From Thermoplasmatota archaeon (GTDB taxonomy: Archaea > Thermoplasmatota > Thermoplasmata > UBA10834): a stretch of 64,000 bases of DNA. Positions 30,694 to 55,847 of this stretch are shown here, piece after piece. The stretch spans positions 798 through 64,797 of the forward strand of contig JAHIZT010000053.1 of assembly GCA_018814355.1 (NCBI GenBank), given 5' to 3'. The notes under the pieces are model-generated. The model was not told where the DNA came from. It saw only the letters and a list, made by a program, of their open reading frames with translations, and made no database searches. Numbering within the stretch: position 1 is the first letter of the stretch; every line of letters begins with the position of its first letter. Both the position numbers and the translations under genes were made by a program.

Positions 30694-33141
30694 TCAATGA
30701 CCCGCGTGCGAGGACTGACCTGCCGAGTATGTTCCCTTGGGCCCGAAAACAGGGTTGACCTTGTGCGCAGAGGCTTCGAGGGCCTTCCTCCTTGCATCGG
30801 GAGGCACCTTCCCGAGCTGCCGGATCTTCTTGTCGAAGTTGTCGATGTGTTTCGGGAGCACTTTGTAGATCGGCAGAAGCATGGGCACGAATGTCACCCT
30901 GTCCTTGCCTATCCCCAGGGCGTCCAGTTCCGACGCGAGTCCCTTCAATCTCTCTTCAACGATGTGGGCGATCTCACCGCCCTCCTCGTCCGATAGGATG
31001 ACGCCGTCGGCTCCGTAGGCGAACGCTCGGAGGATCTCCCGCCTGCCCATCCTCGCAGCAGATGGGACCCTCATCATCCTGATCGAGGGCGGATACTCCA
31101 GTCTTGCAGTGCCTGCGCTGTCAGCCGCGACATAAGCCAGAGTGTCGCCAAAGAATCCGACTATCCTCAGATCTGGCGATGCCGCATCAAGCAGGCCGCT
31201 CATCTCAGAATCCACCTGTGAATCGGTGTAATGGGCAAGCTCGAACACGCGCTCGGGGCATTCGGAGACGCATGCCCCGCAACCTATGCAGGCGAACGTA
31301 TCGACTCTTGGTACCTCGTCGACCTGGATCGCCTTCGCCGGACAGATCGCCTCGCATGCTTTCCACTTCGTGCACTTCATCCCGTCCGCGACAATCGCCT
31401 TCACTGGGTCAACGAGCATCTTACCTGTGCCCAGGAACTCGACCACCTGTCCAGCAGTGCTCCTGCCATCTATGACGCTATCCCTCACATCCTTAGGCCC
31501 GAGGACAACACCGGCAGCGAATATTCCGGATCTATGGGTGGATACCGGGTCCAGCTTCGGATGCTTCTCAGACACGAACCCGTCCTCACCCAATGGCACC
31601 TTCATGAGCTTTGCCAGCTCGGCGGTCCCCTTGGAGGGCATCATCGCGGTGCAGAGCACTACCATGTCGAACTCATTCTCGATGATCTCGCCGAGGGTGA
31701 CATCCTCGGCCCTCACCATGATTCCGTTCGTGCCTTTCTGTATGTCCGAAACCTTGCCGTGGATGTACTTGACTCCGTAATCCTCCATCGACCTAACATA
31801 GAACTCCTCAAAGCCCCGACCGGCCGCCCTGATATCAATATAATACACGTAGACCTGCATGTAAGGGAAGGTCTTCCTGAGTATCACCGACTGCTTGATC
31901 GCGTAGTTGCAGCAGATCTTGCTGCAGTACGGCATGCCGACCTTCCGCGTTCTCGAACCCGCACAGAGGACGTACGCCACCTTCTTGACCCTGTTGCCGT
32001 CCGCTTTCCTTTTCAGGACCATGCCAGCGCCGCACTCGTTGATCATCAATCGCTCCATCTGAGTCGCAGTGATGACATCAGGCAGGGACGTGTCATACTC
32101 GTGGAGCTTCTTGACATCGAACATGTCGAAGCCTGTGGCGACGATCGCTGCTCCGACCTCGAACTCCTGGAACTGTTCCTTCTCCTCTAGGTCGATCGCG
32201 TGCACAGAGCAGACCTTGACGCACACACCGCACTTATTACACTTATCGAAATCCACAACGTACGATGCGGGCACCGCCTGTGGGAACGGCTTGTATATCG
32301 CCTTTCTCTCGTAGAGGCACTCCTCGAACTCGTTTAGGGTCTTAGCGGGACAAACCTTCTCGCACTTGGCGCATCCAATGCACTTCTTCGGGTCGACCCC
32401 CTTCGGGCCTATTCTGACCTTGACCTTGTAGCTACCCGGTGTTCCCGAGAACTCAACAACCTCCGTCCCAGTGTACAGTACGATATTCGGGTGAGTCCCT
32501 GCATCCACCATTCGTGGGCTCAGGATGCACGTGGCGCAGTCGAGCGTCGGGAAGGTCTTGCTAAGCTGGGCCATCCGGCCGCCGATGCTGGAGCTCTTCT
32601 CAACGAGATAGACCCTGTACCCCGAGTTTGCCAGCTGGAGCGAGGCAGATATTCCTGCGATCCCGCCCCCGATGACGAGCACCTCCTTGGACATCGTCAT
32701 CTCCTTCGGGAAGAGGGATTCGAGCCGAGCGGCTCTGAGAACGCCGCCCTTGACCAGGTCCTTTGCTTTCTTCGTGCCCTCGTTCTTGTCCTTGTGGACC
32801 CAGGAGCACTGCTCCCTGATGTTCACCATCTCTAGATTGTAGGGGTTGATACCGGCATCCTCGAGGGTCTTCCTGAAGGTCTTCTCGTGCATCTTGGGAG
32901 AACATGACGCTACGACGATCTTCGTCAGGCCATTCTTCTTGATGTCCTCGACGATCTGGTTCTGTCCGGGCTCGGAGCATGTGTAGACGTTGTCTCGGCT
33001 GATGACTACACCCTCAAGACCTTGAGCGTATTCGGAGACGGCCTTGCAGTCGACGGTCCCTGCGATGTTGCTTCCGCAGTGGCATACGTAGACCCCGATC
33101 CGTTCGTCCTTCTCCTCCTTCTTCTTCCCTTCGACAGCCAT
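30694..33141 (-). CDS. hdrA: Heterodisulfide reductase subunit A-like flavoprotein (HdrA) fused to a C-terminal MvhD-like domain lacking the usual Cys ligands
   Basis: N-terminal 4-Cys domain (VYVCHCGSNIAG), FAD motif VIGGGIAGISAS, and ferredoxin CxxCxxC motifs. The C-terminal RIVGFFGDTLAYVAADSAGTARLEYPPSIRMMRV...GADGVILS resembles MvhD with its Cys replaced. Confidence 0.8.
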   Translation of the reverse strand: MAVEGKKKEEKDERIGVYVCHCGSNIAGTVDCKAVSEYAQGLEGVVISRDNVYTCSEPGQNQIVEDIKKNGLTKIVVASCSPKMHEKTFRKTLEDAGINPYNLEMVNIREQCSWVHKDKNEGTKKAKDLVKGGVLRAARLESLFPKEMTMSKEVLVIGGGIAGISASLQLANSGYRVYLVEKSSSIGGRMAQLSKTFPTLDCATCILSPRMVDAGTHPNIVLYTGTEVVEFSGTPGSYKVKVRIGPKGVDPKKCIGCAKCEKVCPAKTLNEFEECLYERKAIYKPFPQAVPASYVVDFDKCNKCGVCVKVCSVHAIDLEEKEQFQEFEVGAAIVATGFDMFDVKKLHEYDTSLPDVITATQMERLMINECGAGMVLKRKADGNRVKKVAYVLCAGSRTRKVGMPYCSKICCNYAIKQSVILRKTFPYMQVYVYYIDIRAAGRGFEEFYVRSMEDYGVKYIHGKVSDIQKGTNGIMVRAEDVTLGEIIENEFDMVVLCTAMMPSKGTAELAKLMKVPLGEDGFVSEKHPKLDPVSTHRSGIFAAGVVLGPKDVRDSVIDGRSTAGQVVEFLGTGKMLVDPVKAIVADGMKCTKWKACEAICPAKAIQVDEVPRVDTFACIGCGACVSECPERVFELAHYTDSQVDSEMSGLLDAASPDLRIVGFFGDTLAYVAADSAGTARLEYPPSIRMMRVPSAARMGRREILRAFAYGADGVILSDEEGGEIAHIVEERLKGLASELDALGIGKDRVTFVPMLLPIYKVLPKHIDNFDKKIRQLGKVPPDARRKALEASAHKVNPVFGPKGTYSAGQSSHAGH

Positions 33142-33414: not shown

Positions 33415-35838
33415 TTGATGCCAAACCCCGACGAGCCGGCCGAGAACTCCATTGCATGCCCCATATGCGGCTACCAGTCGCCAAAGGGTGCGACCAGGTG
33501 TGAACACTGCTACACTAGCCTACAGGCCGAAGAGAAGACAACGGGTGCTGGAGAGACCGAACCGGATCGCGGCCAGAACGAAGAGGGCCTTGAGGAACTC
33601 AGACTCGTTCCTGGAGTCGGCGAGGCGAAGGCCGAGACTCTGTATGAGGCTGGATACCGCTCGCTGAAGGACCTGCAGGAAGCTAGCGTCGACGAATTAT
33701 CAGCAGTGAAGGGCATCAGCGAGAAGCAGGCCGCCAAGATAATCAGGGGTGCAAACAGTCTTACGAACCCAAGCGGGGCCTCCCCGCTGGCAAACTGGCT
33801 TTCGGGAGAGGACGAGGGACTCTCCGAATGGCTTTCGGGGGAAGAGAGGGTCCAACCGGAGGCGACGGCAATGAAAGCCGACGCCCCACGGGATAATTCT
33901 CTGGCGAAATGGTTGGCTGGGGAAGAGGAGGATGTGAACGTCTGGCTTGAAGAGACCAGGGCACCTGAACCCGCTCCACAGACCATCGGACCTAACGAGG
34001 TCCTTGCAAGAGAAGCTGAATTGATCCAGCTGCGCGAGACCATGCGAGAGAAGCTTAGCCAGTTCGAATCAGGGGACTTCGACGCGCAGGCGACCATCGA
34101 AGAGCTCGCCAAGGCCAAGGGTGACCTCGAGATAGAGAGGGGCAAGGCTAGGCAGCTCGAAGAGGAACTCGAAAACGTCAAGCGTGGGAGCATTGCGGTC
34201 ATCAAGTTCATCAAGAACCAGCAGGGGTCTGAGATGGACCAGAGCACGCTCACTGACAAGCTGGCATCTGAGATGGCAAACCGGGAGAACCTCGAGCTCA
34301 AGATAATGCAGCTTGAAGAGGTCAATACGACCCTGAAGGAGGAAGTCGAGGCCGGGATTCAGGAGCTTCCTCCAGAGGCACAGGAGCTCAAGCGCAGGGA
34401 GACCGAGCTCGCGGAGATGAAGGCCCAGCTCGAAGCGATGAAGAAGCAGCTCCTGGCTAAGGAAGAGGCTCTGAGTCAGGGCATGCTGTCTGCACCCCCT
34501 GGGACTACGGTGATGATCGATGCAGGATCCGCGCAACGCGCAGAGGAGTCAGCCAGAAGGGAGCAGGAGCTGGCCGCGAGGATTCAGGAGATCGAGGGAA
34601 AGTTGGCCGAGGCGGATGTCCTGGTCAGACAGAAAGATGAGATGCTCAAGATCTCAGGCGGTTCTGCGAAGACCGTCGACAAGGAGGTCATGAGGAAGCT
34701 GGAAGACGCCCAGAGACTCGAGCGCACACTTGCGGTCAGGGATCAGGAGCTTCAGAGGGTAAGGGGGGATCTCAAGGTGAGCACGGAGGACCTCCAGAAA
34801 CTCAAGGAGCCGATGAAGTACAAGGAAGAGGAGATGCTCAGGCGTGAGGAGGACCTCATGTTCCGCGAGCGGCTGCTCCAGGAGGAGCTGAAGAAGGTCA
34901 CCCAGTCCAAGGCCGAGCTGACATCCCATGGCGAGATCGACCTTAAGAAACGCCTAGAAGTGCTCCAGGCAGAGGTCACGGCGAAGGAGGAGTCGATCAG
35001 GAACAAGGAGAAGTACCTGTCCGCCAAGGAGGAGGAGCTCAGGCTCAGGCAGCAGGGCGTGATATCCGACGAGATAGAAAAGCGCGAGCTGGACCGGATG
35101 CTCGAGGTCAAGCAGGAGAAGGTAAAGACGGGCACCGCCAGGCTCGACGACTTGCTGCTAGGTGGTATGCCGTTCGGTGCGAACGTGCTAGTCTACGGTC
35201 CTCCGTTCACTGGCAAGGAAGTGCTGCTCAACGTGTTCATCGCGGAGGGGCTCAAGAAGGGCATACCCGCGATCTGGATCCTGACAGAGAAGTCCCCAAA
35301 GGATGTTCGCGAGGAAATGACTTTCGTGGTCTCCGGATACGAAGAGTACGAGAAACTCGGGCTCGTGAGATATGTTGACGCGTATTCCAGGAGCATGGGA
35401 GATGACTCCCAGGACCCGTATGCAGAGTATGTTGAGTCTCCGACGGACTACGAATCAATCCAGAGAGCCGTGGAGACTGCCGCGAAACCGATGCGGGAGA
35501 AGCACCCGTATTATAGGGTCGGCTTCCGATCCATTTCCACGTTGATAGCGTACCTCGACCCTGGCACAGCGTTCAGGTTCCTGAGCCCTGTTGTAGGCAG
35601 GAGAAAGCGGGACAAGGCAGTTGCTATGTACACCATCGAAAAGGGCGTCCACGGTGAGCAGGAGATCCAGATGATAGGCTCACTGATGGATGGGATGATA
35701 GAGTTCAAGGTCGAGAACCTGAACACCTTCCTGGCGATCAGAGGCATCTGCGACGTTCAGTCGAGGTCTTTCATCAGATACTCCGCAACGAAGGTTGGCG
35801 TCACAATCGGTTCGTTCTCGCTGGACCACATCAGATAG
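33415..35838 (+). CDS. Multidomain protein: N-terminal zinc ribbon, (HhH)2, W-acidic repeats, ~400-aa coiled coil, C-terminal KaiC/RecA-like ATPase domain
   Basis: CPICGYQSPKGATRCEHC; HhH (LVPGVGEAKAETLYEAGY...VKGISEKQAAKII); three WL(S/A)GEE repeats; heptad-rich E/K/L region; C-terminal Walker A-like GPPFTGKE and KaiC-like fold. Confidence 0.6.
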   Translation: MMPNPDEPAENSIACPICGYQSPKGATRCEHCYTSLQAEEKTTGAGETEPDRGQNEEGLEELRLVPGVGEAKAETLYEAGYRSLKDLQEASVDELSAVKGISEKQAAKIIRGANSLTNPSGASPLANWLSGEDEGLSEWLSGEERVQPEATAMKADAPRDNSLAKWLAGEEEDVNVWLEETRAPEPAPQTIGPNEVLAREAELIQLRETMREKLSQFESGDFDAQATIEELAKAKGDLEIERGKARQLEEELENVKRGSIAVIKFIKNQQGSEMDQSTLTDKLASEMANRENLELKIMQLEEVNTTLKEEVEAGIQELPPEAQELKRRETELAEMKAQLEAMKKQLLAKEEALSQGMLSAPPGTTVMIDAGSAQRAEESARREQELAARIQEIEGKLAEADVLVRQKDEMLKISGGSAKTVDKEVMRKLEDAQRLERTLAVRDQELQRVRGDLKVSTEDLQKLKEPMKYKEEEMLRREEDLMFRERLLQEELKKVTQSKAELTSHGEIDLKKRLEVLQAEVTAKEESIRNKEKYLSAKEEELRLRQQGVISDEIEKRELDRMLEVKQEKVKTGTARLDDLLLGGMPFGANVLVYGPPFTGKEVLLNVFIAEGLKKGIPAIWILTEKSPKDVREEMTFVVSGYEEYEKLGLVRYVDAYSRSMGDDSQDPYAEYVESPTDYESIQRAVETAAKPMREKHPYYRVGFRSISTLIAYLDPGTAFRFLSPVVGRRKRDKAVAMYTIEKGVHGEQEIQMIGSLMDGMIEFKVENLNTFLAIRGICDVQSRSFIRYSATKVGVTIGSFSLDHIR

Positions 35839-36756: not shown

Positions 36757-37767
36757 ATGAACTTGTCCCCCCAGCACGCGAGCTATTGTGCAGACTCGAC
36801 CGGCAACCGGATCAAGAAATCACCGCGGTGGGACAACGGCGAGGGCGTGGCCTCCACAATCGGAACAATCATGTCGCTCCTCGTTTTCTTGACGGCCTTT
36901 GGGATGTTCACGAACCAGTTCGTGCCCGTATGGATGAGCGACAACGAGAGCAGCCACATGTCAACGGTCATCCAGCAGTTCACGACGCTCAAGTCGTCCG
37001 TGGACATCAGCATCTCTTACAACTCAAACAGCAGGATAGCACCTACGCCAGTGTTCGTGCCGATCACTTTGAGCTCGGCAGGCATCCCCGTGTTTGCCGC
37101 CCCCACCGCGGGGATACTGCGATACATTCCCGAAGCGATCAATCAGAGGCCTATGTTCAACATCACCTATAGTTACATTTCCCCAACTGGCACGCCGAAC
37201 ACCTTGAGCTCGAGCAACGATGGGCACTCAGGCGGCTCGCTAGACCTCTACTGTCCCAACAGATACTTTGTCGAGCAGCACTTGGTCTACGAATCGGGCG
37301 CAGTGATCCTCAACCAAAGCGATGGTGAATTCATCATTGCCGGGCCGCAGTTCTCAGTCAGGAACGTTGGGACTGCCAGCTCCCCGGAGATTGTGGTAAT
37401 GTTGACCCAGATCTCGCTCCAGGGCCTGAACAAGACCATCGGAGGCACTGGCTCCAAGGGAGTCACTGCGGACCTGCTATATGCGGACACGACGGCATAC
37501 GAGAACAGTGCAGGATCTCAGGTTACCATCACAATCGTCTCGAACCACGGCTATGCATGGTATGAGTACTTCCTGAGCAGGCTGGACGGCACGGCCGACA
37601 TGACAATAGGTAACGGGTTCACCCTGACGAAGGCACTTCTCCCATTCCCCCCATCCCCCAACAGAATGAACAACTACTACGTGGTCACCCTGACAATAGA
37701 CAATGTACATATTCTGGACTACACGCATGCCATCGTGAAGCTCTCGATAGGGGAGCTCGGAGTATAG
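36757..37767 (+). CDS. Putative archaeal pilin-like / archaellum-accessory-like protein with class-III-type N-terminal hydrophobic segment, N-glycosylation-sequon rich
   Basis: Charged leader (NRIKKSPRWDNG) then hydrophobic helix EGVASTIGTIMSLLVFLTAFGMF; beta-rich with many N-x-S/T sequons. Lies directly upstream of the FlaI-family ATPase. Confidence 0.35.
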   Translation: MNLSPQHASYCADSTGNRIKKSPRWDNGEGVASTIGTIMSLLVFLTAFGMFTNQFVPVWMSDNESSHMSTVIQQFTTLKSSVDISISYNSNSRIAPTPVFVPITLSSAGIPVFAAPTAGILRYIPEAINQRPMFNITYSYISPTGTPNTLSSSNDGHSGGSLDLYCPNRYFVEQHLVYESGAVILNQSDGEFIIAGPQFSVRNVGTASSPEIVVMLTQISLQGLNKTIGGTGSKGVTADLLYADTTAYENSAGSQVTITIVSNHGYAWYEYFLSRLDGTADMTIGNGFTLTKALLPFPPSPNRMNNYYVVTLTIDNVHILDYTHAIVKLSIGELGV

Positions 37768-37777
37768 GAGTGATCTC

Positions 37778-39538
37778 ATGGCTGAAGCTCAACCAAAGGT
37801 AAAACACGAAATCGATGTCAAGGCCCCGCCGATGCCACTTGGCGCCAGGATATATCAGGGCTGGGTGGGAGCTGTGAGCAAACTGAAGTCGTCCCCTATC
37901 GAGATCAGGGCTCCGAGAGGCGCGGCCGCACGGAAACGCGACTGGAGCCACGGTAGGGGTTCAGTGTACACCAAGATACCGCCGATCACCGACACCGCCA
38001 TTCAAGAGATCGGGTTCTACAGCGTGGTCGAGCCGTTCAGTTACACAAGAGCGACATACAACAGCACGATCAGCGAGTACATCCTGACCAACATAGAGCC
38101 CACCCTGACCGAGGACGAGGAGGAGCTCCTCAAACTCATCAAGGAGACCCTTGAGAAGACCCTCGAGTACGAATGGGACAAGCTGGCCGTGATGGACAAC
38201 AAGACATTCCTGGAGAGGAGCGTGGACAGTTTCATCAAGTCCAGAGGCATGAGCATCGAGCCGATCTCCAAGGACAAGATCACGTACTTCATCTCGAGGG
38301 ACTTTGTGGGCTACGGGAAGATCGACGCCCTGATGAACGACAAGAACATCGAGGACGTTTCGTGCGATGGCGTGGGAATCCCGCTGTTCGTGTTCCACAA
38401 CAAGTTCGAATCCATCAAGACGAACGTGTCGTTCGAAGACGAGGACGACCTCAACTCGTTCGTGATAAACCTTGGCCAGAGATGCGGCAAACAGCTGTCC
38501 GTCTCGAACCCGATACTGGACGGCACGACACCCGAAGGGCATAGAGTCCAAGCGACATACGCAAGGGAGGTCACGACCAGGGGCGCGTCGTTCACGATAA
38601 GACGGTTCAAGGAGAAGCCCTTCACTCCCGTCGAGCTAATCAAATACGGAACGGCGTCACCCGAGATCGTTGCGTACTTGTGGCTCAGCGTTGAGCACGG
38701 CGAATCCGCAATAATATGTGGTGGGACTGCCAGCGGCAAGACGGCGACACTGAACGCAATGGCCCTATTCATACCGCCAGGCGCCAAGGTCGTCACCATG
38801 GAGGATACGAGGGAGATCAATCTGCCGCATGAGAACTGGATCCCCGGTACGACAAGGTCCGGCGTTGGTGAGCGTGGCCCGGACGGCAAGGCCGCAGGAG
38901 AGATCGACATGTACGACCTCGTCAGGGCGGCGTTGAGGCAGAGGCCAAACTACATCATCGTCGGTGAGGTCAGAGGCAAGGAGACATACACGATGTTCCA
39001 GGCGATGGCGACCGGGCACACGACGTTCTCCACGATGCACGCTGACAGCGTTAAAGGAATGGTCAACAGGCTCGAGAACCCGCCCATCAACTGTCCCAGG
39101 ATACTTCTCACGGCCCTAAGGAACGTCATCATCCAGACCCATGCGAGAGTCGGGATGGGCATGGTCAGGCGGATCAAGCAGCTCATTGAGATCGTCGGTT
39201 TCGAGCCCGAGACGAACGAGCTCATAAGCAACACCGTCTACGAGTGGGACCAGGCGTCTGACAAGTTCATATTCAAAGGCCACAGCTTCCTTTTCGACAA
39301 GATCATGGAGATGAAGAACCTGACCCACGAGGAGCTCACGCAGGAGTTCGAGCGCAGGGTCGACATCGTGAAGTACATGGTCGCGAAGGATATTGCGGAC
39401 CACCGCGAAATATGGGGTCTGATCAGGGAGTATTACAAAGACCCCAAGGCCACCGCGGAGATGGTCCGCAAGGAGCTCCACGGGGCGGCTCCCAGACCCG
39501 CGCAGGTAGTAGTTTCCGGAGGTGAGGCAACTGCCTGA
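37778..39538 (+). CDS. FlaI/ArlI-family type IV filament assembly ATPase (paralog 1)
   Basis: Strong similarity to the archaeal FlaI core: Walker A GGTASGKTATLNA, Walker B/Asp box IIVGEVRGKE, His box TFSTMHAD. Confidence 0.8.
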   Translation: MAEAQPKVKHEIDVKAPPMPLGARIYQGWVGAVSKLKSSPIEIRAPRGAAARKRDWSHGRGSVYTKIPPITDTAIQEIGFYSVVEPFSYTRATYNSTISEYILTNIEPTLTEDEEELLKLIKETLEKTLEYEWDKLAVMDNKTFLERSVDSFIKSRGMSIEPISKDKITYFISRDFVGYGKIDALMNDKNIEDVSCDGVGIPLFVFHNKFESIKTNVSFEDEDDLNSFVINLGQRCGKQLSVSNPILDGTTPEGHRVQATYAREVTTRGASFTIRRFKEKPFTPVELIKYGTASPEIVAYLWLSVEHGESAIICGGTASGKTATLNAMALFIPPGAKVVTMEDTREINLPHENWIPGTTRSGVGERGPDGKAAGEIDMYDLVRAALRQRPNYIIVGEVRGKETYTMFQAMATGHTTFSTMHADSVKGMVNRLENPPINCPRILLTALRNVIIQTHARVGMGMVRRIKQLIEIVGFEPETNELISNTVYEWDQASDKFIFKGHSFLFDKIMEMKNLTHEELTQEFERRVDIVKYMVAKDIADHREIWGLIREYYKDPKATAEMVRKELHGAAPRPAQVVVSGGEATA

Positions 39539-40559
39539 AATATCCGACGTCTTCAAGCAGGTCGAGGTCAAACCTTCTCAGTACCTCAAGACCTCGATCG
39601 CGCAGACGGGCGAGAGGCTCGGCCCGCATGCTGTAAGACTCACGAAGGGCGCTGTTCCCGAGTACATCAAACTCTCGCCGTTCCAAGACCTCGCGTGGAG
39701 GACGATGGGCAAGTACGCCAAGACGAGGACAGCCCAGCTGCAGCAGCTGGATGACTCGCTCCTGAAGGCCCACATGAAGATCAGGCCAGAGGAGTACCTG
39801 GCATATGTGTTGATGGGCACGCTCGTCTCAGCTATCATAGGCGTGGCAATCGGCATAGGCGTCGGTGTTGTCCTGTTCGGCCTCCTGGGCGTGAGCGTGG
39901 TTCTCAGAGTCGTGGTGGCGGCCCTCGCGATTGGCCTGCTACCGATAATGGCATACATGATGTTGCTCGGCTCCCCGCATTCGAAGGCGAAGAGACGCGG
40001 AAGAGACATAGAGAAGAGGATCGCCGCCGCCATGAGCTTCATCTCGGCGATGGCGTCGGCCGATGTCAACATCGATGTCATATTCAAGGAGCTGTCAAGG
40101 CAGAAGGTCTACGGAGAGATAAGCCAGGAGGCCGCGTGGATCACCAGGGACACCGAGCTGCTGGGGTCTGATATCCTTACGGCCATCAAGAAGGCTGCAA
40201 AGAGGTCCCCGTCCTCGAAGTTCCAGGACTTCCTTCAAGGCGTCATCACCACATCGACATCCGGCGGACAGCTGAAGCCGTATTTCCTGCTCAAGGCCGA
40301 GGAGTACCAGAAAGAGAACAAGCTTGCCCTCAAGTCCCAGATGGAGACCCTGGGTATGCTCGCGGAGTCGTTCGTGACCGTCGTCGTCGCGTTCCCCCTG
40401 TTCCTTGTGCTCATCCTGGCGATCATGGCCATCGTCGGCGGGGGAGACCCCCAATTCATGGTCATGATGCTCTATCTGATAGTGCTCGGGATGATCCCTG
40501 TGTCACAGTTCGGTTTCATATTCGTCATCTGGAACATGTCAAAGGAGAGTGCGATGTAG
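39522..40559 (+). CDS. TadC/FlaJ-like membrane protein, N-terminal T2SSF domain (ends at in-frame TAG)
   Basis: TM helices flank a cytoplasmic T2SSF-like domain. Ends at TAG 40557-40559, followed immediately in the same frame by ATG 40560. Confidence 0.6.
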   Translation: MRQLPEISDVFKQVEVKPSQYLKTSIAQTGERLGPHAVRLTKGAVPEYIKLSPFQDLAWRTMGKYAKTRTAQLQQLDDSLLKAHMKIRPEEYLAYVLMGTLVSAIIGVAIGIGVGVVLFGLLGVSVVLRVVVAALAIGLLPIMAYMMLLGSPHSKAKRRGRDIEKRIAAAMSFISAMASADVNIDVIFKELSRQKVYGEISQEAAWITRDTELLGSDILTAIKKAAKRSPSSKFQDFLQGVITTSTSGGQLKPYFLLKAEEYQKENKLALKSQMETLGMLAESFVTVVVAFPLFLVLILAIMAIVGGGDPQFMVMMLYLIVLGMIPVSQFGFIFVIWNMSKESAM

Positions 40560-41492
40560 ATGCCGCCTCAGAAAGCCATGAATGAGCAGGAGAGGGAGAA
40601 AGCCCTCAAACGGATACTGGCAACTGACAAGGTGGACCTGACGAAGACCCTCCTGGGCGCTTCGATGGGTGTGGCCGCGCTGTTCATATTCATGGCAATC
40701 GTGGACAACATGGGAAGCCTGAAACTCCCACTAGACCCGATCGACTGGATCATCTTCGCAATCGCGGCGATCATCGGCCCGTACGGATTCTACGCGACCA
40801 CCAGGGAGAAGCGCGTTAGGGAGATCGAGACGAGGCTGCCTGACTTCCTGAGAGATGTCGCAGAGGCCGGCAGATTCGGCATGACTCTCGCGAACGCAAT
40901 AGTCGTCGCATCGTCCGGAAGGTATGGTCGGCTGACACCAGAGATCACGAGGATGGCCGCGCAGATCGAGTGGGGCGTGCCCGCCTCCGAGGCCATCAGG
41001 CTTTTCTCCGAGAGGGTCAAGACGCCTCTGGTCACAAGAATGGCGTCCATCATCATGAAGGCCAACGACGCAGGCGGCAATGTCGCCGATGTGCTGAGCA
41101 TGGTCTCGCACGACGCAAAGGACACCATCCTGACACAGGAGGAGAGAGGCGTTACGATGCAGACCTACGTCCTGGTCGTATACATCGCCTTCTTCGTGTT
41201 CATCGCCACCATCCTGATCCTGCAGGGCCAGTTCCTTCCGAAGATGGAACAGGCAGGCAAGCAGGTCAGCGAGCAGGCGGAGAAGCAGGGCCTGGGGGAG
41301 ATACCGGGTGTGAGCATTCAGGTTGACATCATCCCTACGGTCTCGTTCATCTTCCTGCTGTCTGTGGTCGTACACGCGATAGGTGACGGTCTGCTGGCGG
41401 GAGTCATAGCGAATGGGAGCATACCGATAGGCATGAGGCACAGCTTCATAATGCTGATCGCAGGGTTCGTATCATTGAGGGTCATCGGGTGA
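40560..41492 (+). CDS. TadC/FlaJ-like membrane protein, C-terminal T2SSF domain
   Basis: Second T2SSF-like domain with TM helices. Same reading frame as 39522-40559. Confidence 0.6.
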   Translation: MPPQKAMNEQEREKALKRILATDKVDLTKTLLGASMGVAALFIFMAIVDNMGSLKLPLDPIDWIIFAIAAIIGPYGFYATTREKRVREIETRLPDFLRDVAEAGRFGMTLANAIVVASSGRYGRLTPEITRMAAQIEWGVPASEAIRLFSERVKTPLVTRMASIIMKANDAGGNVADVLSMVSHDAKDTILTQEERGVTMQTYVLVVYIAFFVFIATILILQGQFLPKMEQAGKQVSEQAEKQGLGEIPGVSIQVDIIPTVSFIFLLSVVVHAIGDGLLAGVIANGSIPIGMRHSFIMLIAGFVSLRVIG

Positions 41493-41498
41493 GTAAAG

Positions 41499-43208
41499 AT
41501 GACAGAGACTGAACAGCCCAAGATGCAAGTTGAACCTGGAACCGAGGAACCGAATGAGAAGAAGAAGGGCCCAGGCTTCATGTCGGCGTACTACAACTTC
41601 CTGCTGAAGATCAAACCGAAGCCCTTGATGATCGCCCTCCCCAAGAGCGAGACCGGCACGGACATGTCGAGGATAACGGACATCCCCAAGATTTCCGAGC
41701 CGAACGTGGACGAGGTGGAGCTACTTCCGATCAAACAGAACTACGTCTACGTGAGGATCAAGTATGACAACAAGTCCAACGAGTACCTTTACGAGGTCAT
41801 CGAGCCGAAGCTGTCCGAGGACGAACGGGATGTCCTGACGCTCCTGAAGGAGACCCTGGTCGCTTCTGTCGAGAAGATGACCGAGACGGTAGCCGAAGAG
41901 AAAGAGAAGTACCTCAGGAGGATAGTCGAGAGGCTCATGGTTCAGCTCGGGGTAACGCTCCACCCGATCTCGAAGGAGAGGGTGACTTACTACATCATCA
42001 GGGACTTCATCGGATACGGTGTGATCAACGCGATGATGTCAGACCCGAACGTGGAGGACTGCTCATGCGACGGCGTCGATGTCCCATTCTACATATACCA
42101 CAGGAAGTACGGCTCGATCAGGTCAAACCTGAGATTCGTCAAGGAGGTGGAGCTGGACGGATATGTCGTCTGGCTGGCCCAGAAGTGCGGCAAGCACATC
42201 TCTGTGGCGAGCCCGCTGCTCGATGCAACGATCCCGGACGGTTCCAGACTGCAGGCGACCCTCGGTAGGCACGTGACAAAGAGAGGATCCTCGTTCACCA
42301 TCAGGCGGTTCAAGGAGAACCCGTTCACGCCCCTCGACCTGCTCAAGTTCAAGACAATGAGCACGGAGATGATGGCGTATCTATGGATCTCGATCGAGCA
42401 CGGCCAGTCGATGCTCGTCTGCGGAGGCACTGCGAGCGGCAAGACTACTACCCTCAACGCGATCCTGCTTTTCATCCCGCCTCAGATGAAGATCGTCTCC
42501 ATCGAAGACACCAGGGAGCTCAACCTGCCCCACGAGAACTGGGTCCCGGGCCTCACGAGGGAAGGGTTCGGAGGCAAGAGCCACATCACTGGCAGGGCGT
42601 CAGGCGAGATAGACATGTTCGATCTCCTCACATCAGCCATGAGACAGAGGCCACAGTACCTGATGGTCGGTGAGGTCAGAGGCAAGGAGGCATACGTCGT
42701 CTTCCAGGCCATGGCCACCGGCAAGACCTGCTACTCAACCTTCCACGCGGAGGACGTCCAGGCGATGGTGCACAGGATGGAGAACGACCCGATCAACCTG
42801 CCAAGGGCGCTTATCACGGCACTGAACATCGTCCTACTCCAGGCACAGGTCAAGGTCGGCACCAAGATGACCAGGCGTGTGAAATCTCTTACTGAGATCG
42901 TTGGCATCGACCCTGAGACGAACGAGCTCATCACCAACTCGGTCTACACATGGAATCCCGCGGATGACAGCTTCAACTACAGCGGCCACAGCTACGTTTA
43001 CGAGAAGGTCAGGATGGCCAGGAACTGGGCCCCGAGAGAGATGGAGAGGGAGATCAAGAGGCGTGTGGACATCCTGGAGTACATGAAGAAGATCGGGATG
43101 GACAACCACAGGAAGGTCGCAACGATCATCTCTGCATATTACAAGGACCCCGAGAAGGTCATGAAGGAAGTGAGGGCAAAGCTGGCTGAGGGCGCGGAGA
43201 AGCTCTGA
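41499..43208 (+). CDS. FlaI/ArlI-family type IV filament assembly ATPase (paralog 2)
   Basis: Walker A GGTASGKTTTLNA, MVGEVRGKE, STFHAE. Roughly half identical to paralog 1 over the core. Confidence 0.8.
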   Translation: MTETEQPKMQVEPGTEEPNEKKKGPGFMSAYYNFLLKIKPKPLMIALPKSETGTDMSRITDIPKISEPNVDEVELLPIKQNYVYVRIKYDNKSNEYLYEVIEPKLSEDERDVLTLLKETLVASVEKMTETVAEEKEKYLRRIVERLMVQLGVTLHPISKERVTYYIIRDFIGYGVINAMMSDPNVEDCSCDGVDVPFYIYHRKYGSIRSNLRFVKEVELDGYVVWLAQKCGKHISVASPLLDATIPDGSRLQATLGRHVTKRGSSFTIRRFKENPFTPLDLLKFKTMSTEMMAYLWISIEHGQSMLVCGGTASGKTTTLNAILLFIPPQMKIVSIEDTRELNLPHENWVPGLTREGFGGKSHITGRASGEIDMFDLLTSAMRQRPQYLMVGEVRGKEAYVVFQAMATGKTCYSTFHAEDVQAMVHRMENDPINLPRALITALNIVLLQAQVKVGTKMTRRVKSLTEIVGIDPETNELITNSVYTWNPADDSFNYSGHSYVYEKVRMARNWAPREMEREIKRRVDILEYMKKIGMDNHRKVATIISAYYKDPEKVMKEVRAKLAEGAEKL

Positions 43209-43944: not shown

Positions 43945-46900
43945 CTACTGGTTCTCGTCCTCTTCGCCTGACCCGGTCTCTTTCTCCTCGCCGCTCACGG
44001 GCGTCTTGATGATCTTCTTGGGCACGACCTTTCGGTCTATCGGCCTTCTGATGACCATCCTGGGCGCCATTGCCGGAGGCACCTGCTGAGCCTGTGTGCC
44101 GCCTCTCTCCTCCGTCAGAGGCGCCCCCTCGACCGCCCTCTCCTCGGGCGGCGCCGCGGGTGGCAGGCCCTTCTTTGGCGGTGCTACTGCTGGCTTGACC
44201 GCCCCGAACACGGTGCCGCACTTGTGGCACACGTTCGCTTCCTTCGGGTTCAGCGTGCCACAGACCGGGCACGGGACCGGGCCCTCCTTCTTCTTCTCCT
44301 CTTCCCTGGCGAGCCAGTCGTCGAAGCTGATGTACCCAGGCTGCGCCATCCACCAGGCCTCGAATGCCTTCTCGCTGAACTTCTTGCCTAGCTCGGGCTT
44401 CGCGAGCTCGCGGTACTTGGAGACGATCTCATCGTACTCCTTCCTCATGCGCTCGAGGTAGTCGGCCTCCACTTCGGTCTCGCCCGCGAACTTCACGCCA
44501 CAGTTCGGGCACTCGGTCGATTCAGCAGGTATCCACGCGCCGCACTCGGAGCACTTCATCGTGCCAGCTTCGAACTCGACACCACACTTCGGGCATCTCT
44601 TGCTCGCGGCCGGTATGAACGCGCCGCACTCGCCGCACTCCACGAGTTTACCAAGACCATATATATAAGTGTACACGGTGAAGCCAGCAACAACGCCAAC
44701 AACAGCGACGATGATGAGTACCCAGACCCACCACGGGAACAATCCGCCCGAGACTTGTGCGCTCACATGGATCGTGGTCGCGCTGTCATAATCGGAGTCG
44801 AGGATCACGGCCCTGACGGTGTATGTACCAGTGTCAAGAGATGGCGGTATTCTCAGGAGGACGATTATGCTTCCGTCCAGGCTCGTCGTCTCAACGGTGC
44901 TGTTCGAGTCCGGCACAAGCTCGCCGGAAGAGTCGACCAGCCAGAACACAACTCCTGGCAGACTCTTGACAGGGTCACTCATGCCGGCGTAAGTCACCGT
45001 CGCACTGATGACCATCATATCGCCAGCATTGTATTCGGCGAAGTCACTAATGATCACCACATCGACTAGCAGCTGCGTTATGTTGAAGGGTGCTACAGCG
45101 AAGTTGTTGGCCTCGTTCGGCTCTGCTATCGATCCCGGCCCATCAAGCCAGACCCAGATCTCGTAAGCGCCTGGAGTTGTCAGGTTGATCGGCCACAGGA
45201 CCGTGACCAGGAGCGTGTTCTCCGTCGCGTTCGAGGAGATGTTGTAGTTCGCTTTCGTGTGGATGGTGTGGTTATAGCCTGCGCCCCTGACGCCGATCTC
45301 CACCTGGAAGGCATCTACCCGCCTTCCTCCAAGGTCCCTGACAAGGGCTCGGACGTTGACCTGGTGACCGAATACATCGCTCGTTACGTTGGTCGTGCCG
45401 CGCTGCACATAGATGTCCGAAGACACGATGGACAGGTCCGGCCTGACATCGGTCACGGCAATGATGATAGTCTGCTCATTGTTCATGTAGTTCGTTTCCA
45501 CTTGGTCATGGCCCTCGTTGACCCTCATCACTAGGGTCACATCAGTCCGAACCGTCACTGTCGGAGACGTGAAGGTCTGTGTCACCTCGAGAGATCCGCT
45601 AGCGGCCGAGAGAGACACGCCAGAGACATCCCAGGGTATCGGAGCTATCGACCCGCCGGCCCATGTGACATAGAGAACCAGGTTTGGATTGACGAACGGT
45701 GCTGCGTTCAGGTTCTGCAACTGCGCTCTTACCGTTACGGTCTCTCCTCCTGGCACAGCGATAGCTGGGGTCGTCTCGATTGAGGACAGCAGCAGATCTG
45801 GGTGGTCGTACACCATTATCTGGATGCTATCATGGTTGTTTAGAGGATCCATTTCCTCGTAACCGCCCATTAGAGTAGCCACAACCTCAATCGTGTGTTG
45901 CACTCCAGGATTCGCTGGATTCCATGGAACAGATGCCAATATGGATCCACCGGGCGTAATTCCCGTGATGTTGTCCGATCCGACGTACGCACCATCATCG
46001 AAGAAGTCGACCTGAACCAAGGTGCTCACGTTGTTTCCGTCATTGTAGATTCTCGCCTGTAGGTCGCACGCCGTCCCAACGATCACGAAGTCGATGGACG
46101 CCTTGATGGATGGATTGAGGGGTGATCCCGCACTGACCCTGATGTCCGGAAGGCTCTTGATGGTCAAGATGCCAGATGCGATCGCGGGCGTAGCATCATT
46201 TATCTCGCGGATCACGTTGAGCCTGTCTGCCACAACTAGGAATGTGTGACTGTTCGGGTCGACCTGCCCCGATGCGGTCCAGCTGGCACTCGCAACTCCG
46301 GACAAGCCTGCCATGATCACCGGTATGCTCGTCGTGGCGAACAGTTCGTTGTTATCTACATCTGGAATGCCATTCTTGTTGAAGTCGTCGAAGAACTCGA
46401 CAGCAACTTTGTAGGCGCTCGCAACACCAGTGTTGTTTATCCTTCCATATATCCAAACAGTCTCCCCCATCCTCAGGTGCGTGATGGAGACGCCTGTTGC
46501 GTTTAAAGCCCAAACAGGTGTGTAACCCTGGTTCACGCTGAGGTCGCATAGAGCGGCTGGAATCGTCATTGTGGCATAGGTTGCGTTCCTGCCGAGCGGC
46601 TTCTCATAGGGCTTGACGCTCAGGGAGATTTCCGAATCTCCCGAAGAATTGTCAGCATAGTATGGCTGTCCCGCAACTGCAGGATATGTGTACGTAGCAT
46701 TGACCCAGTAGTTCCCCACGAAGGTGGAACCGATGGAAGTCAGTCTCGTGCCAAGCGAATTGACCTTGGCAACTCCGAGTGATTCTGGCGCGGCGCTGCT
46801 CATCGCCCATCCGGCTGGGACCTGGCTGACATATGATCTTGTGGATACGTTCACGCCTGGCAGAGGCATTCCTGCCCCATCGAGGACAGTCACATGGATC

Positions 46901-49206
46901 CATCTGTAGATCAGTGCTACAGCGTCGTCAGTAACCTCGATTGCGGGTACACTCGTGTTCGTGAACCCTGCCTCAACACTACCGGAGAGTTCCGGTATCT
47001 GGCTAAGGTCAGAATCCTTGATGGAGATCTTCTTGGTCCATGAATCCCAGGCCGTCGTGATCTTGCCATCCATCACCACATTGGAGAACAATATGGTCGC
47101 GTTCTCTTCGATGACAATGTTCACGCCTTCCATAACGGAGTCAACGACCTCTAGTATCCCGTCTCCCCTGACAACAATGTTGATCGGATACTGGCTTGTG
47201 ACTCTTGATTTCTGGAACAGCAGTTTCGCAGGGGAGGCGGCGGTTCCGTCGACATAGATCGTCTTCGTGTATGAGCCAGGCGGTACCAGCTGGAATACCG
47301 AGTTCGTGAAACTCAGTGTGCCTCCAGCGGCGACAATGACATCTCCTGCATGGTAGTATGTCATGTTCTTGATGTCAAGAGATGGAGGGACGACCAACCA
47401 TCTGGAGGGATCAGGGCTGGGCGCAGAGAGACCTATTATCGAAACAGTGACATCGAAGCTCTGATCAGCGTGGGTCATGGCAGGGTAAGCGGGGAAGGAG
47501 AATGCCTCCGTAGATTTGAATGATCCATTTACTCCTGTGATGTCGTAGGAACCTACAAACCTCGAGTCCATTGATCCACTGCCTGTGATGATGTCGGTGA
47601 GATAGGGTATTGTGGCCTTTCCGTCACTCTTCGTCATCGAATAGGTCAAAGCCGTCTCACCCATATAGGCAAGAATCTCGGAAGGGGGCGTCGTTGACAC
47701 ACTCCTCGGAGCGTAGTATATTGCCTGCAGACCCTCTAACTCGGTCGCGCCAGTGAAGTTGGCTAAGACATTGGAGTTGGATGTGGGGACGCCGTATTCA
47801 TCACCGATTGTTGTATTGAGCCATCTGTAGATGAAGGCGTCAGCTCCAACAGTGAACATTATCCAGATACGATCGAATTCGACGAAGCCTGCTCCAGGCC
47901 CATTCACGAATCTCATGTTCATGTTTCTGACATCGCCAACAGTCGCTATCGTCGACAACGGGAGATTGTAAAGTCTCTCAGTGCCTGGTGGATCGGTGTT
48001 GACAGGTACAATCGACGTATCAGAATACGCACTACCTTGCCTTGCCCACTGAACATGCGCCGTTCCGCTGTAAGCTGGGGCGACGGCATATGTCGCCACA
48101 AGCGTGGCTGAGCTTACTGGAAGGGCATCAGAAAGACCGCTCACGTCCCATGTGTCGATTTCGAGGGTTTGTGTCGGCAAGACCTGAATAGTCCCTCCAT
48201 CCACAACCGCGAGGTTCGTCAAGGATCCCGAAGTACTATCAGCGAGCCCTCTCGTTAGGGGGACTGCTGGCGATGCACTAGCTCCAGATGCCATGATGGC
48301 TGGGGCTCTGTCGGCTAGGGCTCCCGTGTATGTCTGGAAACTAGCTCCGTAGAAGTATGCATGAGACATGTCGTTGATTACTATCGCATTATGCACATGC
48401 CAATCCGCCGCAACTCGAGTTGGTCCGAAATCGACGCTGATATAGCTGTTGACGGCCAGAAGCGTCGACTCACCGTTCAGGGTCAAATTGCTCGCGGACA
48501 CGAGGTCAGTAGCATACTCAGGAAGGTCGAATATGGACGAATCATAGAGCTCCAGGGTCGAGTCGTTCAGGGTGATTGCAGGACCGTCATCGGCCGAGTC
48601 GAAGGTTATCGCGCCGCTCGATCCGATCACATACTGTGCGACCAGCGTCGGCGGGAGCGCCATGATCTCAGTGTCCGTCAGGCTGACGTTCGCGTCCGTT
48701 CTCAGGATGATGTTCCCTGGGAACATGAGCAACGAGTTGTTGGTCGCAATGAGCTTACCGCCATCCTGGACAGTGATGTTCAGGAACGGCCATGGGTTGA
48801 TCTGGTCCAGGTAGGCAGTGATGGTACCATGGTCCAGGACGAGCTTGCCGCCCGCGAAGACAGTGATACTGTGCTTCAGGTTAGGATTGTTGTTGCTGAT
48901 GATGCTCATGGTCGCGTCCCTGATGATCAGCTCTCCGCCGACTCGAACTTCGACATTGCCGTCGATCGGCTGTTCGATGTTCTCTATGGTATACGTTCCG
49001 TTCTGAACGATCAGGTCGCCCGCGGCGGCTCTCGTGGGCGTCATATCGGCCATGAACAGAAGGCCCGCGAAGGCGGAAATCACAAGACACACGACGGCCA
49101 AAGCACTCAACGTTCTATTGGCAACTAGCTTGTCAGCTTTGCCTTTCATAAAGTTCACCCACCCAGGATGCTGGGTACTGCGGGAAGAAGTAAGCAGGTC
49201 AGCCAT
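43945..49206 (-). CDS. Giant (1753 aa) cell-surface protein: N-terminal signal anchor, beta-helix-like and CARDB-like repeat ectodomain, C-terminal TM helix and cytoplasmic tail with three zinc ribbons
   Basis: N-terminal hydrophobic segment; hundreds of N-x-S/T sequons; CARDB-like motifs (EPNEANNF, DPLNNHDS); TM LFPWWVWVLIIVAVVGVVAGFTVYTYIYG; tail CGECGAF...CPKCG, CSECG...CPNCG, CPVCG...CHKCG; Lys/Pro-rich end. Confidence 0.6.
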   Translation of the reverse strand: MADLLTSSRSTQHPGWVNFMKGKADKLVANRTLSALAVVCLVISAFAGLLFMADMTPTRAAAGDLIVQNGTYTIENIEQPIDGNVEVRVGGELIIRDATMSIISNNNPNLKHSITVFAGGKLVLDHGTITAYLDQINPWPFLNITVQDGGKLIATNNSLLMFPGNIILRTDANVSLTDTEIMALPPTLVAQYVIGSSGAITFDSADDGPAITLNDSTLELYDSSIFDLPEYATDLVSASNLTLNGESTLLAVNSYISVDFGPTRVAADWHVHNAIVINDMSHAYFYGASFQTYTGALADRAPAIMASGASASPAVPLTRGLADSTSGSLTNLAVVDGGTIQVLPTQTLEIDTWDVSGLSDALPVSSATLVATYAVAPAYSGTAHVQWARQGSAYSDTSIVPVNTDPPGTERLYNLPLSTIATVGDVRNMNMRFVNGPGAGFVEFDRIWIMFTVGADAFIYRWLNTTIGDEYGVPTSNSNVLANFTGATELEGLQAIYYAPRSVSTTPPSEILAYMGETALTYSMTKSDGKATIPYLTDIITGSGSMDSRFVGSYDITGVNGSFKSTEAFSFPAYPAMTHADQSFDVTVSIIGLSAPSPDPSRWLVVPPSLDIKNMTYYHAGDVIVAAGGTLSFTNSVFQLVPPGSYTKTIYVDGTAASPAKLLFQKSRVTSQYPINIVVRGDGILEVVDSVMEGVNIVIEENATILFSNVVMDGKITTAWDSWTKKISIKDSDLSQIPELSGSVEAGFTNTSVPAIEVTDDAVALIYRWIHVTVLDGAGMPLPGVNVSTRSYVSQVPAGWAMSSAAPESLGVAKVNSLGTRLTSIGSTFVGNYWVNATYTYPAVAGQPYYADNSSGDSEISLSVKPYEKPLGRNATYATMTIPAALCDLSVNQGYTPVWALNATGVSITHLRMGETVWIYGRINNTGVASAYKVAVEFFDDFNKNGIPDVDNNELFATTSIPVIMAGLSGVASASWTASGQVDPNSHTFLVVADRLNVIREINDATPAIASGILTIKSLPDIRVSAGSPLNPSIKASIDFVIVGTACDLQARIYNDGNNVSTLVQVDFFDDGAYVGSDNITGITPGGSILASVPWNPANPGVQHTIEVVATLMGGYEEMDPLNNHDSIQIMVYDHPDLLLSSIETTPAIAVPGGETVTVRAQLQNLNAAPFVNPNLVLYVTWAGGSIAPIPWDVSGVSLSAASGSLEVTQTFTSPTVTVRTDVTLVMRVNEGHDQVETNYMNNEQTIIIAVTDVRPDLSIVSSDIYVQRGTTNVTSDVFGHQVNVRALVRDLGGRRVDAFQVEIGVRGAGYNHTIHTKANYNISSNATENTLLVTVLWPINLTTPGAYEIWVWLDGPGSIAEPNEANNFAVAPFNITQLLVDVVIISDFAEYNAGDMMVISATVTYAGMSDPVKSLPGVVFWLVDSSGELVPDSNSTVETTSLDGSIIVLLRIPPSLDTGTYTVRAVILDSDYDSATTIHVSAQVSGGLFPWWVWVLIIVAVVGVVAGFTVYTYIYGLGKLVECGECGAFIPAASKRCPKCGVEFEAGTMKCSECGAWIPAESTECPNCGVKFAGETEVEADYLERMRKEYDEIVSKYRELAKPELGKKFSEKAFEAWWMAQPGYISFDDWLAREEEKKKEGPVPCPVCGTLNPKEANVCHKCGTVFGAVKPAVAPPKKGLPPAAPPEERAVEGAPLTEERGGTQAQQVPPAMAPRMVIRRPIDRKVVPKKIIKTPVSGEEKETGSGEEDENQ

Positions 49207-53854: not shown

Positions 53855-53864
53855 CCACTACCAC

Positions 53865-55847
<1,983 letters not shown>

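Follow-up and report, generated by a model that had tools for sequence, protein, structure and literature searches.

A TAG stop codon between two single-domain platform genes of a Thermoplasmata pilus locus as the probable boundary of an anciently split gene pair

A single in-frame TAG (40557-40559, + strand) divides what appears to be one two-domain TadC/FlaJ-like platform gene in a 64-kb stretch of Thermoplasmata DNA (hereafter the window, meaning the whole stretch analysed), and is directly followed by an ATG (40560-40562, + strand) with a 0-nt spacer. The question raised by this locus is whether the codon is a true stop. The initial annotation had considered, without favouring any one of them, a real division into TadB/TadC-like halves whose translation is coupled, programmed readthrough, a pseudogenising mutation, and an assembly or sequencing error. 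Our analysis of the junction, the encoded domains and the neighbouring genes led to the conclusion, held with high confidence, that the TAG is the true stop of an anciently split pair and that the platform is made as two proteins, likely a heterodimer, with probable reinitiation at the second gene. The Thermoplasmata pilus platform would then be encoded by two adjacent genes with one T2SSF domain each, contributing the N- and C-terminal halves. What looked like a broken gene, or like a candidate for recoding, becomes a conserved two-gene platform, and the value of the case is mostly that of a clean negative.

Two single-domain halves of a platform protein

Direct reading of positions 40551-40565 gave gcg atg TAG atg ccg, preceded by the codons tca, aag, gag and agt. 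Half 1 (ORF1; 39522-40559, + strand) encodes 345 amino acids as called, from a GTG start to the TAG, and half 2 (ORF2; 40560-41492, + strand) encodes 310 amino acids from the abutting ATG. The GTG at 39522 is an uncertain start for half 1, because it results in a 17-nt overlap with the upstream ATPase gene and because the homologous stretch of one relative (L018) has TAG as its third codon. The two ORFs share one frame with a single stop between them; by chance alone, same-frame placement of two adjacent ORFs is a 1-in-3 event.

Each half contained one T2SSF domain (PF00482), scoring 51.6 bits (1.1e-13) in half 1 and 60.5 bits (2e-16) in half 2 relative to a Pfam gathering score of 25.2, which places both within the family, and a crude hydropathy scan showed hydrophobic segments flanking the domain in each half. 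Sequence and Pfam results confirmed the initial description of a contiguous ATG-TAG-ATG between same-frame ORFs carrying one T2SSF domain each. T2SSE genes are located directly 5′ and 3′ of the pair.

Alignment to the NCBIfam ArlJ profiles placed half 1 at positions 5-246 and half 2 at positions 263-536 of a profile of 555 positions (half 2 also at 193-450 of a second profile, of 465 positions), such that the two halves in order run collinear with the complete profile, and a distant fused FlaJ-like protein (P0068, 504 aa) also aligned collinearly over both halves. Half 1 is therefore the counterpart of the N-terminal half, and half 2 of the C-terminal half, of the ArlJ/FlaJ/PilC two-domain protein. 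BLASTP found no significant similarity between the two halves, indicating that they are not the product of a recent duplication. The archaellum ArlJ/FlaJ protein is one polypeptide with two T2SSF domains, and its curated profiles score best for both window halves; the window platform differs in being split and in scoring far under the cutoffs of the ArlJ/FlaJ equivalogs (NF004703-NF004705), the best scores being 84.6 bits for half 1 (cutoff 550) and 70.2 bits for half 2 (cutoff 400). The best NCBIfam matches of the halves (ArlJ, UpsF and BasF) hint at a clade other than Tad/Epd. A sequence search against solved structures returned a chance match only for half 1 (E=0.28) and none at E<=1 for half 2.

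Eight database proteins of 449-633 aa (P0001-P0008), which have the source label 'src' only and lack a contig, extend over parts of both halves and were considered as possible fused orthologues. They were rejected due to the missing contigs and to junction regions that were deleted, duplicated or frameshifted. In P0001, the best of these long proteins, SSSSSGTWNRR stands where relatives have FIFVIWNMEQE and corresponds to a +1-frame reading of the same codons, so that this protein looks like a frameshift or assembly artefact. Two further 'src'-only database proteins (P0014 and P0015), which combine T2SSE with T2SSF, were considered and rejected along with them. Our guess is that the 'src'-only long proteins derive from protein-level assembly.

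Conservation of the stop codon among relatives

A lone in-frame stop in an apparent two-domain gene is what is usually seen when a gene that is normally fused has recently been turned into a pseudogene by a nonsense mutation, or has been wrongly sequenced or assembled. However, the TAG junction was the same in three other independent assemblies (99.9% identical, 3-7 SNPs from the window), and the exact half 2 protein was called as its own gene on three other contigs; the agreement of four independent assemblies led to rejection of the error option. Both halves are under purifying selection, with dN/dS of 0.08-0.13 for half 1 and 0.10-0.14 for half 2 in unsaturated comparisons (dS up to ~1 or more). 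The pseudogene option was discarded on the basis of these ratios (~0.1 in both halves) and of both halves being intact in ~80 species.

The junction was compared across 75 scoreable species-level loci of Thermoplasmata and Methanomassiliicoccales, in which the half 2 start was assigned by a nearest-ATG rule; eight further loci were left unscored as they had no assignable start, each having a stop and then an ATG a few bases on. A stop was present at the homologous codon in all 75 species loci (TAG in 37, TGA in 33 and TAA in 5), kept over more than one substitution per synonymous site, and half 1 orthologues of 361-364 aa terminated at the same residue. None of the orthologues had a sense codon at the TAG position, the 71 matches included no fused orthologue derived from a genome, and the halves strictly co-occur and adjoin in relatives. 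The comparison of orthologues that had been asked for earlier thus returned a split gene in 75 of 75 species-level loci and a fused gene in none, and a recent nonsense mutation or an error at this site is regarded as a practically negligible possibility.

Programmed readthrough of the TAG, by pyrrolysine or a suppressor tRNA, would produce a fused FlaJ-like protein and make the split apparent or partial. The single in-frame TAG between the ORFs of the window and of 27 other species is consistent with such a mechanism, as is the use of pyrrolysine by Methanomassiliicoccales, a related order. However, the half 2 start was located -4 to +13 nt from the stop in 74 of 75 species loci, and its frame relative to half 1 was the same in 40, +1 in 21 and +2 in 14. 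Half 2 was therefore out of frame with half 1 in 35 of the 75 species (TGATG, TAATG, TAG-N-ATG or ATGA junctions), where readthrough gives no fused protein. The TGA and TAA codons of many orthologues and the lack of a sense codon in any of them also argue against readthrough, and the option was rejected as highly improbable. Pyrrolysine recoding is likewise not supported by the sequence: ARAGORN detected tRNA-Asn, tRNA-Met and tRNA-Phe only, with no tRNA-Pyl in the 64-kb window, which is a small sample of the genome, and TAG terminates many of the long ORFs of the window. The stop codon counts among 46 long non-overlapping ORFs were TGA 26, TAG 19 and TAA 1, so TAG is not the commonest stop here, as had been claimed; it is nevertheless a common one, and the earlier judgement that pyrrolysine is unlikely holds. 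In annotation, the pair should neither be labelled a pseudogene nor joined into a single gene, and it should not be taken as support for stop-codon recoding.

The identical ATGTAGATG junction was present in the three other assemblies and in 27 other species. Junctions in the close clade comprised TAGATG (27 species), TGATG (7), TAATG (4) and TAG-N-ATG (5), the stop and start being 0 nt apart in the window and -1 to +1 nt apart in nearly all close-clade loci. One-base indels separate these four forms, all of which retain a stop and a start but which differ in relative frame, and orthologues at 83-86% identity already have TGATG or TAATG junctions with a shifted frame. The shared frame is a property of one clade's TAGATG junction and does not point to a fused protein. 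In the TAGATG clade (the window and at least 27 species) this shared frame could be taken to suggest minor readthrough to a full-length platform, giving two isoforms, which we consider very unlikely; if true, the pilus machine of this clade would have two platform isoforms. On the same basis, the TAGATG junction is possibly the scar of a fission by nonsense mutation, which may have occurred apart from the Tad/Epd fission.

The pilus operon and related split platforms

The first gene of the operon (36757-37767, + strand; 336 aa) is pilin-like and has a weak Pfam match to DUF7289 that is below the cutoff (E=1.9e-4). Its N-terminus, read from the sequence, carries an E-G-V-A motif and then a hydrophobic stretch, and resembles a class III (prepilin) signal peptide; in relatives this position is occupied by a similarly sized gene, with DUF7289 matches in some. 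A T2SSE/FlaI-like secretion ATPase follows (ATPase 1; 37778-39538, + strand; 586 aa; Pfam T2SSE 114.5 bits), syntenic across all relatives examined. The second secretion ATPase, encoded downstream of the platform pair (ATPase 2; 41499-43208, + strand; 569 aa; Pfam T2SSE 112 bits), is a paralogue of ATPase 1 (47% identical), and its placement is also syntenic in relatives. PilB3_C was matched above the cutoff in ATPase 2 and at 24.6 bits, below the cutoff of 27, in ATPase 1, while the ATPase counterparts in related loci matched PilB3_N too. Scores against the NCBIfam archaellum FlaI model were 420 bits for ATPase 1, below the 550 cutoff, and 432 bits for ATPase 2, compared with 141-147 bits for the TadA family.

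The order of pilin-like, T2SSE, T2SSF, T2SSF and T2SSE genes, with the T2SSF genes called separately, was common to every relative inspected. The operon contains neither archaellins nor the ArlC-H accessory genes, indicating that it does not encode an archaellum, and no TadZ/FlaH-type gene was found inside it. From its gene content, the locus is identified as a type IV pilus locus with a split platform. Convergent with the operon is a gene for a giant CARDB/zinc-ribbon protein (43945-49206, - strand; 1753 aa; Pfam CARDB and DZR), which may be a pilus-associated surface protein; a similar giant gene is in the same position in three related loci (L006, L010 and L011). The whole window is tightly packed, and many intergenic spacers are 3-10 nt long.

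A split platform is a known, ordinary arrangement, to which the window adds a Thermoplasmata example of platform fission. Two tadC-like genes have been reported for euryarchaeal type IV pilus loci of clade 1 and for many of those of clade 2 (PMC4858521), as well as for Epd-like and Tad systems (PMC6668835), where the split one-domain platform genes result from fission (Denise, Abby and Rocha 2019, PMC6668835). The premise of the initial annotation, that a single two-domain polypeptide is the norm for archaeal FlaJ/TadC, was therefore too general (PMC4858521, PMC6668835). The window pair has the features of a split platform, its genes being adjacent, on the same strand, separate in relatives, and matched to N- and C-terminal halves with one T2SSF domain each. 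TadB/TadC (CpaG/CpaH) and Epd-like systems likewise have two adjacent one-PF00482 genes beside an assembly ATPase, and the halves in these systems, like those of the window, match the two halves of a two-domain ancestor. In contrast to Tad, the window halves and ATPases score best on archaellum-type ArlJ/FlaI models and not on Tad models, and the window operon has a second ATPase and lacks an internal TadZ/FlaH-type gene. Clade 2 PilB3/PilB4-type loci also combine a pilin-like gene with FlaI/VirB11-family ATPase(s) and a pair of neighbouring TadC/FlaJ-like genes (PMC4858521), the clade 2 likeness of the window ATPases being one of domain matches (PilB3_C, above the cutoff only in ATPase 2). 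Two ATPases in one locus have been described in the Thermoplasmatota-related Aciduliprofundum boonei (Makarova, Koonin and Albers 2016, PMC4858521). Relative to the loci of that study, we found no description in the literature consulted of this uncultured Thermoplasmata lineage, of the ATPase - half 1 - half 2 - ATPase order, or of a zero-spacer in-frame TAGATG junction.

CpaG/CpaH have been modelled as a heterodimer that makes up one platform in a study of CpaF (PMC11300603). By analogy with TadB/TadC (CpaG/CpaH), and given the strict co-occurrence and adjacency of the halves, the two window products most likely form one heteromeric platform, a heterodimer doing the work of one two-domain platform protein. 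This heterodimer would dock on the FlaI-like ATPase(s) encoded on either side and deliver pilins to the filament.

Translation of half 2

The split into TadB/TadC-like halves proposed in the initial annotation was upheld by the 75 homologous stops and the 35 out-of-frame loci, whereas the coupling proposed with it is one that we infer from the geometry of the junction and its conservation. For termination-reinitiation, stop and start need to be about -8 to +6 nt apart, and gene pairs for subunits of heteromeric complexes are enriched for it (PMC10666635); studies of coupled pairs with ATGA, TGATG and TAATG junctions have used Haloferax volcanii and E. coli (PMC6728339, PMC10666635). The 0-nt distance of the window pair is within this range, as in those coupled pairs, and its products are presumably subunits of a single complex, the class enriched for coupled junctions; the 0-nt in-frame form is, however, rarer than -4 or -1. 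With the stop and start contiguous, ribosomes ending half 1 probably reinitiate immediately on half 2, and such termination-reinitiation coupling would give matched amounts of the two platform subunits. The one-base junction indels in this family of ~80 species offer a natural example of how selection keeps stop and start codons abutting between the subunits of one complex.

A Shine-Dalgarno (SD)-like purine stretch, AAG GAG AGT (Lys-Glu-Ser; 40542-40550, + strand), is located inside the 3′ end of half 1, and its SD-like AAGGAGAGT may aid reinitiation on half 2. Codon choice in this stretch was nearly invariant across 38 close species (AAG in 31 of 31 with Lys, GAG in 34 of 38, and AGT in 32 of 32 with Ser), so that its third-position entropy ranks in the bottom 3% of conserved 4/6-fold columns. 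The role of the GGAG is uncertain, because it starts at -16 and ends 12 nt 5′ of the half 2 ATG, while the window's other SD-like sites begin nearer their ATG, at -11 to -13.

These observations also bear on a further explanation, in which two separate proteins are made, half 2 is initiated independently at its own ribosome-binding site, and the contiguity of stop and start reflects genome compaction only. The nearly invariant codons of the SD-like element 5′ of the ATG fit this explanation, as do the 3-10 nt spacers common throughout the window and the junctions of Methanomassiliicoccales relatives, in which a good SD is present in the spacer (TGAGGTGA...ATG) and the ATG is 6-13 nt past the stop. 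The confinement of close-clade stop-start distances to -1 to +1 nt, the range of efficient reinitiation (PMC10666635), and the position of the GGAG farther upstream than at other window genes argue against it, and we consider initiation of half 2 by this route alone possible but rather doubtful, with reinitiation after half 1 the preferred explanation. Independent initiation and reinitiation are mutually compatible mechanisms.

The TAG junction as a sequence feature

ORF calls and Pfam matches agree with the initial annotation in that two same-frame plus-strand ORFs, each with one T2SSF (PF00482) domain, are separated by a lone TAG. Half 1 (39522-40559; 345 aa; T2SSF at 51.6 bits versus a Pfam cutoff of 25.2) ends with the TAG at 40557-40559, and half 2 (40560-41492; 310 aa; 60.5 bits versus the same cutoff of 25.2) begins with the ATG at 40560-40562, giving the junction 5′-tca aag gag agt gcg atg TAG ATG ccg-3′. 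TAG is a common stop in the window though second to TGA, and not the commonest as had been annotated (TGA 26, TAG 19 and TAA 1 among 46 long, non-overlapping ORFs). The GTG start called for half 1 overlaps the upstream ATPase gene by 17 nt (39522-39538). At the related locus L018 the third codon of the stretch homologous to the half 1 start is TAG, and the alignments of L025 and L054 to half 1 begin at residue 4, so that the true start may lie a few codons downstream of 39522 or be unconventional.

The exact 310-aa half 2 is called as its own gene on three further contigs (GCA_043817215.1, GCA_018824625.1 and the Logan assembly of SRR2544004), which are 99.9% identical to the window and differ from it by 3-7 SNPs, and are thus separate assemblies. 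All three have ATGTAGATGCC at the junction, and an assembly error at the TAG is not credible, as it would need to be repeated in four assemblies. Relative to eight relatives, dN/dS was 0.08-0.14 for both halves where dS was unsaturated, and the junction nonamer is identical while dS reaches about 1 or more; neither half is decaying. Sequencing error and pseudogenisation, both raised by the in-frame stop, were rejected since the junction is shared by four assemblies and both halves are under purifying selection. The TAG junction is genuine, and its explanation is an ordinary one.

Split orthologues and apparent fusions

A search using the concatenated halves recovered 71 homologues, and all those from genome or metagenome contigs are half-length. 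The 361-364-aa homologues cover residues 6-344 and stop at the last residue of half 1 (…WNMGKEAA-stop, …IWSISQE-stop), and homologues of 360-398 aa match the C-terminal ~250 residues of half 2. The inspected contigs of relatives show this operon again, its T2SSF genes called as two and joined by an overlapping ATGA (4 nt), a spacer of 4 nt or one of 10 nt, with the pair in different frames each time.

A scan limited to a single genome for each species yielded 80 loci; almost all bear MAG titles naming Thermoplasmata/Thermoplasmatota or Methanomassiliicoccales, and a few bear broader or other archaeal labels. From these and the loci on the contigs above, 75 distinct loci could be scored, and a stop was present at the homologous codon in 75/75 (TAG 37, TGA 33, TAA 5). 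The half 2 start lies -4 to +13 nt from this stop in 74/75, the exception being L031 (assigned -11), and the frame of half 2 relative to half 1 is identical at 40 loci, +1 at 21 and +2 at 14. At each of eight loci that the script left unscored, an ATG comes a few bases after a stop. Among species of the close clade (identity of 70% or more), the junction is ATG-TAG-ATG in 27 species, TGATG in seven, TAATG in four and TAG-N-ATG in five, such that one-base indels shift the relative frame while a stop and a start are retained in each form. The TGATG and TAATG species are no further from the window (83-86% identity) than the TAGATG species. At most Methanomassiliicoccales loci the stop is TGA, GGTG… comes next and an ATG lies 6-13 nt on. 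Pyrrolysine recoding and essential readthrough of the TAG were rejected; a readthrough product made in small amounts by species with the in-frame junction would be a bare possibility.

Eight hits of 449-633 aa (P0001-P0008) appear to be fused, but carry the source label 'src' only, with no contig record, and their alignments show deletions or duplications near the junction. The best of these, P0001, has QFGSSSSSGTWNRRAEM in place of the relatives' QFGFIFVIWNMEQEA, and the window codons for FGFIFVIWNM read in the +1 frame give SVSYSSSGT…, so P0001 is most readily seen as a sequence with a frameshift or assembly fault that slips into the half 2 frame. With frameshift-like, deleted or duplicated junction segments and no contig, the eight were not counted as fused orthologues. 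Two further 'src' proteins, P0014 and P0015, are long and apparently join an ATPase to a platform half; all ten are probably artefacts of protein building by that source.

Two complementary platform halves and their proposed coupling

On the 555-position profile of the archaellum platform protein ArlJ/FlaJ, half 1 covers positions 5-246 and half 2 positions 263-536, both far under the equivalog cutoffs. A distant fused FlaJ-like protein of 504 aa aligns collinearly over both halves, and no similarity between half 1 and half 2 was detectable by BLASTP. Together, these comparisons identify half 1 as the N repeat and half 2 as the complementary C repeat of a platform with two domains, the cut falling in a poorly conserved linker past the final hydrophobic segment of the N repeat. 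The genuine split into two platform halves, one reading in the initial annotation, is borne out by the stop at every scored locus and the low dN/dS: the two genes form a split platform pair that is conserved, under purifying selection and arranged so that stop and start codons abut.

In Tad and Epd-like systems the platform is encoded by two genes, each carrying a single PF00482 domain (Denise et al., PMC6668835). Makarova et al. (PMC4858521) describe two TadC components in clade 1, two tadC-like genes in many clade 2 euryarchaeal loci and an Aciduliprofundum locus with two ATPases, and the window locus, with two of each, fits this description. By profile score, its ATPases and platform halves are closer to the FlaI and ArlJ models than to Tad models.

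The two genes, each with its own stop and start, are always neighbours, and their products would pair as a heterodimer standing in for a single two-domain platform, an arrangement proposed for TadB/TadC; CpaG/CpaH have been modelled as such a heterodimer, back-to-back on the ATPase (PMC11300603). Half 2 would be translated by termination-reinitiation after the half 1 stop. In Haloferax volcanii and E. coli this process needs very short distances, being nearly abolished at ~20 nt; junctions of -8 to +6 nt permit it and are over-represented in gene pairs for heteromeric complex subunits (PMC10666635). The choice of the AAG-GAG-AGT codons at the end of half 1 (40542-40550) is invariant or nearly so in 38 species, unlike synonymous sites elsewhere, which are near saturation, and this indicates constraint at the nucleotide level immediately ahead of the stop codon, either Shine-Dalgarno (SD)-like or otherwise linked to reinitiation. 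The contribution of the SD-like GGAG to half 2 translation is uncertain because it starts at -16, whereas other SD-like sites in the window start at -11 to -13.

Operon surroundings and other genes in the window

Both halves belong to a tightly packed plus-strand operon that includes a pilin-like gene (36757-37767; weak DUF7289 match, with an EGVA motif then a hydrophobic stretch near the N-terminus) and two T2SSE ATPase genes, upstream of half 1 (37778-39538) and downstream of half 2 (41499-43208). The ATPases are paralogues (47% identical) that score 420-432 bits with the NCBIfam archaellum FlaI model, under its 550 cutoff, and only 141-147 bits with the TadA-family model; both match PilB3_C, above the Pfam cutoff for ATPase 2 only. 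A paralogous FlaI-like ATPase pair flanking the split platform genes is kept in all relatives inspected. The two might work as alternative motors, one for extension and the other for retraction for example, or as a hetero-assembly.

Convergent with the operon, a minus-strand gene (43945-49206) encodes a 1753-aa protein in which Pfam finds CARDB repeats and, at the C-terminus, double zinc ribbons. Similar giant genes occupy the equivalent position at the related loci L006, L010 and L011, which raises the possibility that this protein works with the pilus operon, for example as an adhesin or surface protein. Upstream of the operon, with a tRNA-Phe gene in between, lies a plus-strand gene (33415-35838) whose 807-aa product has a helix-hairpin-helix region at the N-terminus and a KaiC/RadA-like ATPase domain at the C-terminus, the latter including a weak FlaH-family match; ATPases of the KaiC family have been proposed to regulate type IV pili in archaea (PMC4858521).

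Elsewhere in the window, an HdrA-like flavoprotein fused with an MvhD/FlpD domain (30694-33141, minus strand) and a gyrB-gyrA pair (51236-55793, minus strand) are ordinary housekeeping or energy genes, consistent with a Thermoplasmata chromosome. A 726-aa protein (58633-60813, plus strand) joins a DnaA ATPase domain of the bacterial type (165 bits) to a DUF835 domain at its C-terminus, an unusual pairing for an archaeon.
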